A DNA stretch of 64,000 nt, taken from positions 416,001-480,000 of the forward strand of contig JBMNIW010000012.1 of the NCBI GenBank assembly GCA_050951325.1, written 5' to 3'. A program made the translations under genes and the position numbers. The notes beneath the pieces were generated by a model. It ran no database searches. It worked only from the letters and a program-made list of their open reading frames with translations, and had not been told where the DNA came from. The DNA comes from Clostridia bacterium (GTDB lineage Bacteria > Bacillota > Clostridia > UBA1212 > DUPL01). Below, piece after piece: positions 20,077 through 48,062 of this stretch; within the stretch, counting starts at the first letter, position 1, and each line of letters begins with the position of its first letter.

Positions 20077-21971
20077 TCCTTGAAGAGAAGTTTCTCCAGT
20101 TCTTCTACACTGATAACCGGTGTGTGACATACTTTATTGTGGCAAAGATAATACGTTGTATTAGATTTTTTTGCATCGTAGTTTTTTGTATACGGTGCAA
20201 TTTTTTCTATTGTTTTTGCATTGGCCGGAGTCTTTACAATACAGGTTACATTGTACAAACTATGTTTTGCAAAAAGTCTCCTTATATCCGACATATCGAC
20301 TTCATCGCCAGGCAGAACCACAATCAGCTCCTTGGCAGGATAAAGATTCATCATGCCAGCCATCATGCCAAAAGAATGACCTGAAGGATAATGTTTTGTA
20401 GTCCTTGCGATAAATTGAAGCTGTTTGTACGCCAACTCTTCCCAATAAGGGTCAGCAGTTATTTTAGCAAGCAAGTTTATAATATATGCAGCAACGGAGT
20501 TTCCGGAGGGAAGAGCGCCATCGTACGTTTCTTTAGGACGCAAAAAGAGTGTCTCGTTTTGGTCCGAGTAAAAGTAGAAGCCTCCATCTTTTTCATCATA
20601 AAACTTCTTAACCATGTTTTGTGCATATGTTACTGCCTTAACCAGCCATTCTACTTCAAAAACCGTTTGGTAAAGGGTCAAGTAGGCAAATATGGTGAAT
20701 GCATAATCATCCAAAAAACCATCAACATTCTTTGTTCCTTCCCTGTAGCTTACATACAGATTGCCTTGACCATCAGACAAGTGGTTTTCAATGAAACATG
20801 CAGCATTTCTGGCAAGAATCAAATATTTCGGATTCTGGAGAACGGAATATGCTTTTGCTGAAGCTGCTATCATTAATGCATTCCAGGCGGTAAGGATTTT
20901 GTCATCAAGTGAAAGGCTCGTTCTTTGTTTCCTGTATTCATACAGCTCAGCAAATATTTCATTAAATCTGGCTCCTATGGGATGGACTTGATCAATGAAG
21001 TTTGCATAGTTCGGGTTGTTTATCAAGTTTGGTATGCTTTTTCCTTCAAAGTTTCCTTCTTGTGTTATGTCGAAGTTGGCGTTAAACAGTTTTCCATCTT
21101 CCTCTCCCAGAACCAGAATGGTTTCAGAAGGTGTAAATACATAGTATTTTCCTTCCACACCTTCGCTGTCAGCATCCTGAGCGGAATAGAATCCTCCTTC
21201 AACGCTGACCATTTCCTGGGAAATATATTTAAATGTTTTTACAACTATGTTCTTGAATAACTCGTTTTTTGTTATCTGATATGCTTCAAGGTATGCCATT
21301 ATTAATAGAGCGTTGTCGTATAGCATTTTTTCAAAATGAGGAAGCAGCCATTCATTGTCTGTTGAATATCGTGAGAAACCTCCTGCGATATGATCAAATA
21401 TGCCTCCTTTGTACATTTGTATGAGAGTATTAGCAGCCATTTCAATAGCCTTTTTGTCGTTTTCAAAAACACCATATCTTAAAAGAAATAAAAGATTGTG
21501 TGGCGTTGGGAACTTGGGTGCACTTCCAAAGCCTCCATGTTTTTCGTCATATATGCTCGCAAAGTGGTTTCTAGAGTTGTGAAAATACTCCAGGGTCATT
21601 CCTTCCTTGCCGGATTCCACAGCTTGACTTTCCAAAATTGCATTGATTATTTCATTGCCTACTCTGTGTAAAGATTCCTTGTCTGTTTGCCATTTCTCGG
21701 CAATAGTTGCAAGAATGTCAATAAGTCCGTGTCTTCCGTACTTGGTTCTCTTTGGAAAGTATGTGCCTGCATAGATTGGTGCTTTGTCTGGTGTAAGGAT
21801 TACCGTCAAAGGCCATCCACCTGAACCGGTCAGCATGGTGCATACATTCATATACACCATGTCAATGTCAGGTCTTTCTTCCCTGTCCACTTTAATGGAT
21901 ACAAAATATTTGTTTAATAGGGAAGCAACTTCTTCATCTTCAAAGGATTCTTCCGCCATTACATGGCACCA
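20073..21971 (-). pseudogene. yyaL: 3' part of a YyaL/SSP411 (DUF255 thioredoxin plus alpha-barrel) gene, cut from its 5' end by the integrated element
   Basis: WCHVMAEESFED, KVDREERPDID, GGWPL, GGF.RYSTD, PHFEKMLYDNA; frame open from M at 21959. Confidence 0.9.
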
Positions 21972-21996
21972 GTGGCAAGTCGGCTAATAACAGCAA
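21950..21996. other. Left attachment junction (yyaL 3' arm plus attP arm); crossover dinucleotide at 21970-21971
   Basis: Core CACCAGTG (21967-21974) is shared with 48039-48046; arm 21972-21996 is an inverted repeat (22/25) of 48017-48041. Confidence 0.85.
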
Positions 21997-21998
21997 AA

Positions 21999-22160
21999 CT
22001 ACGAATACCCAATCGAAAGAAAGATTGGCTTCCCTTCTATTTTTGCTTTCTCAAAAGCCTCGTCTCCCCATGGAAACCAAGACACAGGATTGTAAGCATG
22101 TTGTAAGAGATAGGGGCTTTTCTCGTTTATCAATCGATTGGGTTTTCTATTGTTTGCCAT
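21999..22160 (-). pseudogene. yyaL 5' fragment copy 1 (inside the element end), stops at TAG before the att arm
   Basis: [30 protein letters not shown]...[18 protein letters not shown]. Confidence 0.88.
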
Positions 22161-22232
22161 ATTACCACCTCCCTTAAAAATCAAAGTTATTCTTTTATAA
22201 TAATATATCCTAAAATCACAAATTTAAAGGCT

Positions 22233-22261
22233 AAAGGCTACCGAATTTTACGGTAGCCTTT
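22233..22261. terminator. Intrinsic terminator
   Basis: AAAGGCTACCG-AATTTTA-CGGTAGCCTTT. Confidence 0.7.
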
Positions 22262-22276
22262 GTGCTAGTGAACTCT

Positions 22277-45460: not shown

Positions 45461-45699
45461 TTTACTAACCTCCAGTAAAAACCTCTTGTTGCACTTTATT
45501 TTACTAATGCGTACCATATACCTTTATTTTACACCACTTCATCTATAAAAACATCTATATTTTATAACCCATATCCAAAAATCCCCAACGCCAATAGATA
45601 AACTTTAAATATCGATTATACTTAAATGTGAATGAATAACTTTATTTCATTTTATTAGAACTATATCGGTTATAATTTTTTTTCAAAATTATTATGCTC

Positions 45700-46215
45700 C
45701 CATTTTGGAAACAGAAAATGCAACGTATGTTCTATAGGAAATGCAAAAAAATTCCTTACATGGACTCCCTGCAATTACCAATCATCTTATACCCTAAACC
45801 CATATGAAATCTCGTATTTCCAATGCTTCCCTTGTTCCTTTCACCTTTCAATATCACAACTTTATTTTATTATAAAAGAACTTTAACATCCTTAAAAATG
45901 TCTTTCCTTTTTTTAAAATTTCTTCTTCATCATTTCTGAAACAGAAAAATATACCAAGTTCTTATAAAAATAAAATAAAGTCCTAATTCCTTTTCCCTTT
46001 TATCCCCATTCCCCTTGTATTTTATATACTTTATCCCCATTCTTGTATCAAGAAATGTGGTTAAAACCTTAATCTAAGGACTTTATTTTCTTTTTGTAAC
46101 TACTTTTCTGTCATGAAAGAACTTTTCTGTTTCTAAAATTTTTACCCATATGAATTTTAGAAACAGAAAAAAATCGCTATGTTATATAGCAAAAGCAAAT
46201 AAAGTCCTATTACAA
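45700..46215. repeat. Degenerate bipartite repeats and an 18-bp inverted repeat upstream of the LSR
   Basis: GAAACAGAAAA...AAATAAAGTCCT units at ~45708, 45938, 46160 and inverted at 46077-46133. Confidence 0.65.
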
Positions 46216-46498
46216 ATTTCCTTTAATCCCCATTTATCTTGTGTCTTGGAACTCTATTAACTCCAGTATTTTCAACACTTTCCCTTATTCCTTATTCCTG
46301 TAAATAAAACTACTTTATTTCATTTTCTTTTCCATTCAATCTTCCAATCCATTGATTTATCTTAATTTCGGCCTTGCTCCTTATTCCTTATCCCTTAAAA
46401 CTAATACATAAAAAACATGGCCTACAGGACATTCTTTTGCCCTAATAAACCATGTTTTCTGATACAACTTTATTTACTCCGTTTCATACATTTGAAAA

Positions 46499-47971
46499 AT
46501 GAAAGGAGTTTATTTGATTTATACAGTAGAGTATGCAGAAAGCAACGGGTGGCGATATGATATTTATGAAGAAAAGGTAATGTCAGGGGAAAATTTGGAA
46601 GGTAGACCTGTTATACAAGAATTATTGACTGAAATTGAGAAACATAAATATGACGCTGTCCTCGTAATTCATCCAGATAGACTCAGTCGCGGAGGTAGTA
46701 GGGATTTTGGATTGATTACAAGCGTTTTTAAATATGCCAATACATACCTTTTAACTCCACAAAGAAGTTATGATTTATCGGATTCCAGTGATGCTTTAGT
46801 ACTTGGAATTGAAGGTGTCATGTCAAACACAGAACTAAATCTAATCAAAAGCCGTTTCAAATGGGGAAAAATTCAGAGTGTAAAAAAAGGGCGACTTAGC
46901 AATGGAAACCCGCCCTATCCGTACGAAAAAATTCGAAAAATTATTGAGGATGAGAAAGGTAGAGTGAGAGTAGATTTTGACATCATAGTAAATCCGGAAA
47001 AAAACCAAGTATACCAAAGAATAAAACAGATGTATCTCAGGGGAATGGGAACTGAAAGAATTGCTTTTAAACTAAATCGTGAAAATATACCTAGCCCTGG
47101 TGGAAAAACATGGAGTTCTAACACCATCCAAAGACTTCTAGTGCATGAATTCCATATGGGAAAAATAGTATATGGTAAGTATGAATGGAAGAAAAAACCT
47201 CTTTCTGGAGATAGAGAGGTAATAAAAAGAGATGAAGATGAATGGATAATCGGATATGGAAATCATGAAAAACTAAAAACCGAAGAAGAGCACACAGCAA
47301 TCTTGGAAATAATGGGTAGAAATAGAAAAATCCCTCACCGTGCGAGACATGGAGTATATCCAACAAGCGGTTTATTAACATGCAAACTTTGTGGAAGAAC
47401 AATGACTTATAGTCGTGGCAGGAAGGAAGTAAAAACAGGAAAAACGTATGATTATACAAAGTGTTATTATCACAGACCAACTGGAGAAAAATGTCCACAG
47501 CGAGGAGTAAAGATGACAGAAGAGTTTTATGAAAAATTGTATAATACTATAGTTAATAGTTATCTAGACAAAGAAAGAATCAAACAAATTAGTCAAAACC
47601 AAGAAGAGAAGAAAAATATAGAGAAACAAATAAAGACGAAACAAGCCGAATTAGAAAAACATGAAAATGCCCTTAAACTTGCAAGAGAAAAATTAGAAGA
47701 AGGCGTATATAGCGATGAAGACTTTTTGGATGCAAAAAAAAGAAGGCAACCTCAAATTACAAAACTGCGTAAAGAAATTATTCAATTTAAGAACAAACGC
47801 TTCACTGCTTACTCTGATGAAGAATTAGAAAAACTTATAGAGAATTTTAAATGTAACTGGCATAACGCAGTCACAGATAAAGAAAAAAATCAATTACTTA
47901 AGACAATAGTTAAGAAAATTTACTACAATCGTGAAGGTAATACTGTGACTTTTGAAATTGAGTATCTGTAA
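46499..47971 (+). CDS. Large serine recombinase lacking the N-terminal catalytic Y-x-R-x-S motif
   Basis: SG...RP, DRLSRG, PPYPY, recombinase domain, Zn ribbon CKLCG...C..C, coiled coil; ends 71 bp before the att crossover. Confidence 0.9.
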   Translation: MKGVYLIYTVEYAESNGWRYDIYEEKVMSGENLEGRPVIQELLTEIEKHKYDAVLVIHPDRLSRGGSRDFGLITSVFKYANTYLLTPQRSYDLSDSSDALVLGIEGVMSNTELNLIKSRFKWGKIQSVKKGRLSNGNPPYPYEKIRKIIEDEKGRVRVDFDIIVNPEKNQVYQRIKQMYLRGMGTERIAFKLNRENIPSPGGKTWSSNTIQRLLVHEFHMGKIVYGKYEWKKKPLSGDREVIKRDEDEWIIGYGNHEKLKTEEEHTAILEIMGRNRKIPHRARHGVYPTSGLLTCKLCGRTMTYSRGRKEVKTGKTYDYTKCYYHRPTGEKCPQRGVKMTEEFYEKLYNTIVNSYLDKERIKQISQNQEEKKNIEKQIKTKQAELEKHENALKLAREKLEEGVYSDEDFLDAKKRRQPQITKLRKEIIQFKNKRFTAYSDEELEKLIENFKCNWHNAVTDKEKNQLLKTIVKKIYYNREGNTVTFEIEYL

Positions 47972-48016
47972 AAACGTCTATACCCCTTAAAAATGGCCGT
48001 TTTAAATACTCATTAA

Positions 48017-48062
48017 TTGCTGTTATTTGCAGACTTGACACCAGTGACAGGTGCTATAACCA
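48017..48062. other. Right attachment junction (attP arm plus yyaL 5' arm); crossover at 48042-48043
   Basis: TTGCTGTTATTTGCAGACTTGACAC-CA-GTGACAGGTGCTATAAC. Confidence 0.85.

Follow-up and report, generated by a model that had tools for sequence, protein, structure and literature searches.

In the 64-kb window analysed here (the whole 64,000-nt stretch of the Clostridia bacterium contig JBMNIW010000012.1, to which all element coordinates refer), the gene yyaL is split by an island of 26,072 bp, measured from centre to centre of its attachment sites, that lies in the codons of the CxxC motif. Our data point with high confidence to a non-phage element inserted by attP x attB recombination through a large serine recombinase (LSR) of the SPbeta integrase type, now a fossil, and belonging to a family in which an element-borne copy of the yyaL 5' end, here called N', can become the new front end of the host gene. 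This selected N' cassette, found family-wide, together with N-terminal swapping and accretion at yyaL, is the main interest of the locus.

Site-specific insertion in yyaL

The sequence CACCAGTG is present at 21967-21974 and at 48039-48046. On both strands together the window has just one further copy, at 52205-52212; all three copies are yyaL junctions. With the central dinucleotide taken as the CA of the first two copies (Table 1), the inner P and P' arms share an inverted identity of 22/25 and the outer B and B' arms merely 10/25. Among 200,000 random pairs of 25-mers drawn from the window, the mean inverted identity was 6.7 and the maximum 18, and 0.056% of the pairs reached 15 or more. LSRs use a nearly palindromic attP and a weakly symmetric attB, and the geometry found here is of this kind, with an attP-like site (22/25), an attB-like site (10/25) and a common core of 8 bp. 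The initial annotation, made from the sequence of the window, had described the shared end sequence as well as the 25-bp arms, their 22/25 match and the 2-bp centre, all of which were reproduced.

On the sense strand of yyaL the central dinucleotide is the TG of the Trp codon TGG in the CHWC motif. At the right end of the island the minus-strand frame reads MSTNKQ...IGYSTCHW and then departs from yyaL, and the left part opens with ...CHVMAEESFED and runs on for 628 residues (Pfam PF03190 profile positions 55-162, E-value 8.6e-42), identical to the 628-amino-acid cluster representative P0121. The empty site was sought among proteins in the 90%-identity cluster of this C part, and two members from other samples, P0249 and P0250, are uninterrupted YyaL proteins of 688 amino acids with exactly the predicted junction: their N part is identical to the protein of yyaL N fragment 2 of the window (Table 1), followed by TCHWC and by the unbroken C part. 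Precise excision would restore the open reading frame (ORF) with this junction. The same annotation had held that joining the outer arms rebuilds yyaL in frame, with the crossover in the Trp codon of CHWC, and that relatives with an uninterrupted gene should exist; both expectations are borne out by these two proteins. The site-specific insertion itself is confirmed.

In this cluster the split 628-residue form was found on 83 contigs (P0121, P0241, P0242, P0244, P0247 and P0248 summed), the intact gene on 2 and a form with a swapped N-terminus on 1. The attL of the island was recovered from 19 sequencing runs of 12 studies, on metagenomes of digesters, sludge, bioreactors and landfills. Contigs of runs X16 and X18 carry the left end of the island (window match from 21956) joined to a different yyaL allele, ...ERESFEDQEV, which indicates that the island entered at least two hosts at the same codon. 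Runs X15-X18 yielded no contig bridging to an empty site. Among 40 genomes of the same order, source genome included, 11 carry yyaL, and the genes of the 10 relatives are at most 50% identical, which makes them useless as an empty site.

A truncated recombinase

The LSR gene at the right end of the island has lost its 5' end. Its ORF of 490 residues does not include Resolvase profile positions 1-24 and, compared with an intact twin of 517 residues (P0001, 100% identical), about 37 N-terminal residues are gone. An exact match to this truncated ORF was absent from the protein collection searched. P0001 begins MAADLTKVKKVAIYLRKSR, and the missing stretch VAIYLRKSR holds Ser18, which is invariant in the alignment of 22 homologues. 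The window LSR is a truncated family member that does not have a catalytic domain with a nucleophile serine; the Recombinase domain (PF07508, E-value 2.4e-19) and the zinc ribbon (PF13408, E-value 2e-06) are retained. Among solved structures the nearest to P0001 (residues 10-505) is the SPbeta integrase 9dxh (E-value 5.8e-31), with 9dxd also at about 1e-30.

Four degenerate repeats, each about 220-230 bp long and containing the motif GAAACAGAAAA, make up a non-coding array at 45600-46525 that ends exactly where the homology to intact LSR genes starts, which indicates that the array replaced the 5' end and the promoter of the gene. In the metagenome contigs L106 and L110, which have the intact 5' end, the match to the window begins only at 46525. 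Elsewhere in the genome, full-length LSR-like genes show 22-25% identity to the window LSR, and just one match is closer, a short remnant at 51817-52113 (31% identical). Intact versions of this recombinase are common elsewhere (P0001 on 9 contigs, P0255 on 42). Without the catalytic serine the island is unable to excise by its own enzyme. To judge from its sequence, with a dead LSR, a broken hsdS and an inserted IS21 element, the window island is a fossil, and yyaL stays split.

A recombinase clade associated with yyaL

Related loci were collected with the alignment of 22 LSR homologues as query against contigs representing one genome per species, and the best 80 of 178 relatives were retained. 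Of these 80 loci, 35 have pieces of yyaL beside the recombinase. A quick maximum-likelihood tree was built of 81 LSRs, those of the 80 loci and that of the window; one clade of 51 rows (SH-aLRT 100) takes in all 36 that are yyaL-linked and its sister clade of 30 none, which supports the earlier proposal that yyaL is a dedicated target of an LSR clade. The hosts of the family belong to Clostridia, Negativicutes and Bacilli.

Junctions of four types were found. In the first (attR), a host-type N part ending IGYSTCHW is followed by the P arm. In the second (attL; 20 loci and the window), N' and its stop are followed by a gap of 14-52 nt and then by (T)CHWCHVM.... In the third, which marks the joints of tandem elements, N' and its stop are followed by a whole attP, and in the fourth an uninterrupted yyaL stands directly behind the recombinase (L043, L054, L062). 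Between L063, L066 and L067, binned identity drops from 0.94-0.97 to 0.65-0.77 immediately past the TCHW codons, which places the element border at the same crossover. A boundary 230 bp inside the C part, taken from BLAST segments, was rejected because binned identity falls right after TCHW.

A contiguous attP is present in the related contigs L120, L115 and L104. In the IMG/VR contig L120 (7483-7560), the stop of the recombinase gene lies 5 nt before the P arm; CA and the P' arm come next, and then N' reading inward. This is the layout that would be predicted for the circular form of the window island; the contig L120 also carries an endolysin-like (lysis) gene, an HNH nuclease and a tyrosine-integrase fragment. 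In the IMG/VR contigs L115 and L116 the order is recombinase, N' and attP. The contigs L115, L116 and L120 may be free forms or tandem joints. Tandem stacks occur in the window and at L034/L029, L052, L055 and L056. The largest accretion seen at yyaL, in Paenibacillus typhae (the overlapping loci L034/L029), consists of three attR-type N fragments, an N'-plus-attP joint, an attL and two recombinase genes.

Element-borne copies of the yyaL 5' end

The N' of the window adjoins the inner side of the P' arm and matches PF03190 at positions 1-46 (E-value 4.4e-19). It is preceded by the ribosome-binding site (RBS) AAGGGAGGTGG, a promoter-like site at 22228-22200 and, upstream, a terminator-like hairpin, and for these reasons it looks like its own transcription unit. 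It is in frame with the host sequence TCHWCHVMAEE, which lies seven codons past its stop, and it is 74% identical over 61 residues to the copy at the same place in L107. The 83-residue ORF beside it had no Pfam or PHROG match.

In all 32 element-borne N' copies the stop follows directly after Ser53, as TAG in 17, TGA in 12 and TAA in 3, and each of the 24 copies with the full 47-codon block is open, with a start codon and RBS-like upstream sequence. The median proportion of nonsynonymous differences (pN) was 0.164 and that of synonymous differences (pS) 0.853, and close pairs, including L063, L066 and L067, which have the same gap, gave ratios of nonsynonymous to synonymous substitution (dN/dS) of 0.00-0.21. 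By these codon statistics N' is under purifying selection. A stop at one exact codon in three spellings, together with constraint at the codon level, implies that N' is translated. Its variable first residues track the recombinase clades, which indicates that N' is inherited with the element. Read-through of the stop was rejected, since different stop codons are in use and the length of many gaps is not divisible by three. N copies within one genome are 62-77% identical (87% in one Paenibacillus typhae pair) and the median of all pairs is 69%; homologous recombination or homogenisation between N copies was rejected because same-genome copies are no more alike than random pairs.

Additionally, N-termini of yyaL were found to be exchanged. 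The proteins P0252 and P0249 show 11 differences, all before IGYS, and none in the following 635 residues; the N part of P0252 is identical at 51/57 positions to the stop-terminated N' of L069, which comes from a different host, and the match takes in residues translated from ahead of the start codon. Apart from this allele, an uninterrupted yyaL lies beside an element at 3 of the 80 loci, and by position this gene appears to carry the N' of the element. The L054 genome has an attR-type fragment 13.4 kb upstream of the uninterrupted gene, and that of L043 an N'-plus-attP joint 69 kb upstream and a further fragment 85 kb upstream; for L062 there is a sub-threshold N fragment only, on another contig. 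Gene conversion from the distal fragment in the L054 genome was rejected on comparing the two sequences. That N' is selected, and that some elements stand next to an unbroken yyaL, suggests that the disruption is mitigated and not used as a switch.

Proposed course of events

We propose that attP x attB recombination at the TG of the CHWC Trp codon would have inserted the 26.07-kb island into yyaL, as the latest of at least two insertions, with an older relative between N fragments 2 and 3. Elements of this clade typically carry a promoter-bearing N' made of yyaL codons 1-53 and a stop after the Ser of IGYS, flush with the outer edge of P', so that after integration N' precedes the host C part across 14-52 nt of half-site. 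N' would be translated and its protein sequence would matter. The short gap may be lost in some lineages, by which N' would become the new N-terminus of an uninterrupted yyaL, and such a loss would recreate an attB-like site, lock the element in and permit the next insertion. Gap loss followed by reinsertion would explain both the tandem stacks of N fragments and the swapped N-terminal alleles, and short-gap loss after integration is the simplest reading of the uninterrupted genes beside elements.

Several observations weigh against this scheme or parts of it. The microhomology flanking the gap is at most 2-3 nt, and gap loss would destroy attL and end mobility, so that it is insufficient by itself to account for selection on N' in mobile lineages. 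Within the yyaL clade, 15 of the 51 rows have no yyaL piece within their 10-kb flanks. N' is not universal: it is absent in L108 (11540-11600) and L114, whose recombinases are 80% identical and whose recombinase stop lies 8 nt from the P' arm. With respect to the recombinase gene, these two elements are inserted in yyaL the other way round, which looks as if the central dinucleotide of the near-palindromic attP had flipped. For the exact window island neither an empty site at the DNA level nor an attP circle was seen, and the empty site comes from two called proteins, P0249 and P0250, and not from contigs. Lastly, fragment 2 is a putative former N' of the older element, by its position and the layout only.

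Alternative explanations

An alternative that we consider unlikely is a two-piece protein, in which N' (residues 1-53) and the C part would be separate chains that associate into a YyaL short of the CxxC loop only. In detail, termination-reinitiation would start translation of the C part anew at the ATG of CHVM, with GGTG 7 nt upstream as RBS. Purifying selection on N', the stop exactly after Ser53 in 32/32 copies, and the promoter-like site and strong RBS of its own are all in agreement with this. From that ATG the C part is an open frame of 628 residues, and such a protein is on record (83 contigs). In addition, the thioredoxin fold is broken between a strand and the helix of the active site, and fragments of E. 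coli thioredoxin cut near the active site reassemble. However, the conserved CxxC would be lost, and the hairpin, short Shine-Dalgarno (SD) motif and second Ser codon of the relatives with long gaps would be left unexplained. If a two-piece protein were formed, the island would keep part of yyaL function.

Another alternative, to which we give little credence, is that ribosomes hop the attL half-site gap as in T4 gene 60, so that N' and the C part would yield full-length YyaL. It draws on the long-gap relatives (L040, L046, L044, L057, L059 and the L052 copy at 11608), in which a hairpin with a UUCG or UGCG loop begins at the stop that follows the Ser codon. The gaps are 24-52 nt long and often not a multiple of three. 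The hairpins of L057 (-28.9 kcal/mol, z -7.9) and L044 (-28.7, z -7.3) compare with -14.7 (z -4.4) for the T4 take-off hairpin, and the 14-nt hairpin of L052 at 11608 is letter-identical to that of T4. A second Ser codon stands directly before ACN TGY CAY TGG in L040, L046, L059, L044 and both L052 copies, and SD-like GGAG/AGGA motifs lie 7-8 nt upstream of the landing place in L057, L040, L046 and L044. A take-off stop, a hairpin, a matched codon and an SD-like motif are among the features listed for gene 60 cassettes in the Manning & Atkins preprint and a 2017 article in Sci Adv. On the other hand, when compared with shuffled sequences the hairpins of L040, L059 and L052 lack significance (z about -1.3). 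At its landing place L057 has TGG, and a likeness of the inner 13 nt of P' to B' may be due simply to binding of both by the recombinase. A CC-UUCG-GG hairpin can also simply stabilise the end of an mRNA. We give a low probability to the reading that, in at least some family members, a Ser codon, a stop within a UUCG-type hairpin, a gap of 24-52 nt, an SD-like motif and another Ser codon before TCHWC together serve bypassing.

Across the short gap of the window itself (21 nt) bypassing is highly improbable. Here the stop does follow directly on the take-off codon (TCG then TAG), as it does in all 32 element-borne N' copies, but the landing codon is unmatched (TCG vs CCG), the hairpin has z -0.6 and there is no SD motif. 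Take-off and landing codons do not match and the hairpin is wanting in the window; hairpin z-scores were -1.2 for L063 and +0.4 for L023. In the short-gap class generally 1-2 of 3 codon positions match, and a second Ser codon is seen only in L064 and L069. Bypassing, if true, would mean that an integrating element keeps its target gene working although the attP half-site must differ from attB, and hopping, if confirmed, would be a rare cellular example of gene 60-type bypassing.

The initial annotation had proposed an excision-controlled gene switch like skin in sigK and SPbeta in spsM, by which regulated excision would turn YyaL on. We find this very unlikely. Precise excision would restore the ORF, as P0249 and P0250 illustrate, intact recombinase versions are common (9 contigs for P0001 and 42 for P0255), and many hosts fall in spore-forming genera such as Paenibacillus, Desulfosporosinus and Clostridium. 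Against it, the resident recombinase is without its catalytic serine, no candidate directionality factor turned up and nothing points to regulated excision. We know of no link between yyaL and sporulation, and no paper pairing yyaL with 'serine recombinase' was found in the literature. Furthermore, the split form dominates the protein cluster (83 contigs against 2 intact and 1 swapped), N' copies are selected and some elements are locked beside an uninterrupted gene. For the window copy in particular, with an LSR lacking Ser18, a broken hsdS and a landed IS21, a switch of yyaL is unsupported.

That the N fragments are pseudogene debris of a local duplication, with a palindrome arisen by chance or misassembly, can practically be dismissed: repeated gene fragments are present and nothing more speaks for it, whereas the fragments are 67-77% identical in DNA, near the 69% median of unrelated pairs and hence no local duplicates, none of 200,000 random pairs attained an inverted match of 22/25, the same junction types occur in 35 other genomes, and the attL is found in 19 runs.

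Comparison with known systems

Like SPbeta with SprA (YokA) in spsM, skin in sigK and gin in gerE, the family studied here is one of LSR elements inside a protein-coding gene from which precise excision would rebuild the ORF. Unlike them, its target is yyaL, the island is not a prophage, and the copy in the window is without a functional recombinase. To our knowledge, no stop-terminated copy of the 5' end of the target is carried by SPbeta, skin or gin.

In e14 and phage 21 in icd, in integrators into tRNA genes and in SCCmec at rlmH/orfX, the element replaces the displaced end of the gene. The present elements share with them a substitute for the displaced gene part, and repeated insertions that lead to tandem decayed arrays. 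In those systems the gene is rebuilt through a shared core, whereas here a stop and 14-52 nt of half-site separate the substitute from the rest of the gene in 32/32 copies beside P'.

The T4 gene 60 cassette (MobA) is likewise a short non-coding insert derived from mobile DNA in an ORF, with a stop right behind the last codon that precedes it, and the long-gap relatives resemble it further in a UUCG-type hairpin containing the stop, a repeated codon and an SD-like motif. The genes are non-homologous and the insert is a recombinase half-site, not a homing-endonuclease cassette. The window element is without hairpin, matched codon and SD motif, and a bypass product in this family is a prediction. 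Gene 60-type cassettes are found only in phage topoisomerase genes, according to the Manning & Atkins preprint.

Literature searches on gene-intervening elements, as judged by listings and abstracts, turned up skin, SPbeta, gin and yin and not yyaL. Among the papers that name yyaL, as judged by their listing, none is about integration. The CxxC codons of yyaL are a widespread LSR target, apparently undescribed, in Clostridia, Negativicutes and Bacilli.

New in element design is that a copy of the target's 5' end, under selection and terminated by a stop, is carried by the element itself. As N' can replace the host N-terminus, one gene may accumulate a stack of discarded front ends. LSRs are prized tools of genome engineering, and from this family many natural attP/attB pairs can be drawn whose crossover is known; natural targets of LSRs also show how mobile DNA and host genes coexist. 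Cultured carriers of attL, namely Paenibacillus cremeus JC52, Thermolongibacillus altinsuensis DSM 24979, Peribacillus tepidiphilus SYSU G01002, Proteiniclasticum ruminis DSM 24773 and Candidatus Formimonas warabiya DCMF, would allow tests of whether the split thioredoxin-like protein is rescued, be it by assembly of fragments, gap loss or ribosome hopping.

Other features of the window

The features of the locus are collected in Table 1. Within the backbone of the island, the 83-residue ORF and the DUF1444 protein are common to the related element L107. In the type I restriction cargo, HsdR and HsdM are full length and HsdS is not, so that the system is not intact: hsdS is ended by a stop behind the first of its target-recognition halves, and the conserved C-terminal part is encoded in a different frame. 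The island also encodes a GNAT acetyltransferase, and its G+C content is about 0.30, against 0.38-0.40 in the flanks. A PHROGs scan covered 10 ORFs of the window, 8 from the island and 2 from the older remnant; 2 of the 10 had matches, one to a primase-like or unknown family and one to an unknown family, and no virion or lysis PHROG was found among them. The island therefore reads as a non-phage integrative element with restriction and defence cargo, and not as a prophage.

Table 1. Features of the yyaL locus, in coordinates of the 64-kb window.
Feature	Position	Strand	Description
yyaL C-terminal part	20073-21969	-	Called ORF 20073-21959, 628 amino acids, start at the Met of CHVM; PF03190
attL	21945-21996		B arm; centre CA 21970-21971; P' arm 21972-21996
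N'	21999-22163	-	Element-borne copy of yyaL codons 1-54 (MANNRK...FLSIGYS), then TAG; PF03190
Element backbone	22277-29075		83-residue ORF, primase-like protein, small serine resolvase, DUF1444 protein; Pfam, PHROGs
Primase-like protein	22790-24766
Small serine resolvase	25076-25699
DUF1444 protein	28347-29075
Cargo	29247-38991	-	DUF7685/7686/7713 protein, ADP-ribosylglycohydrolase, HsdR, GmrSD-type nuclease, broken hsdS, HsdM; Pfam, PADLOC, stop-to-stop ORFs
Broken hsdS	36203-36967 and fragment 35603-35827		C-terminal part in the fragment
IS21-family istA/istB pair	42460-44701	-	IstB_IS21 E-value 2.2e-63, Mu-transposase C-terminal domain
LSR, 5'-truncated	46499-47971	+	Homology to intact copies from 46525; Pfam Resolvase 25-144, Recombinase, Zn_ribbon_recom
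attR	48017-48068		P arm 48017-48041; centre CA 48042-48043; then B' arm
yyaL N fragment 2	48044-48211	-	MSTNKQ...IGYSTCHW; PF03190 positions 2-54, E-value 4.5e-27; N-terminus of the empty-site allele
Older-element remnant	48212-52204		LSR C-terminal remnant and P-type arm ending 52207
LSR C-terminal remnant	51811-52104	+	97 codons; 31% identity to LSR residues 387-483, E-value 5.3e-5
yyaL N fragment 3	52210-52377	-	MSTSKQ...IGYSTCHW; PF03190 positions 2-56, E-value 1.1e-26

Beyond the right end of the island, the older P arm is identical to that of the island at 19/25 positions and adjoins N fragment 3, which probably is the oldest N-terminus. The G+C content of the older remnant is 0.37-0.48 (0.44 and 0.48 in two of its four 1-kb bins) and that of the flanks about 0.38, and its ORFs gave no matches in Pfam or PHROGs. 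We infer that this segment is an older, mostly deleted relative with the same layout, which would make at least two successive insertions at the site. An Rfam scan of the whole window returned a tRNA-Arg only. Lastly, two genes for extracytoplasmic function (ECF)-type sigma-70 factors, at 19091-19591 and 53487-53966, flank the whole yyaL region, one on each side.

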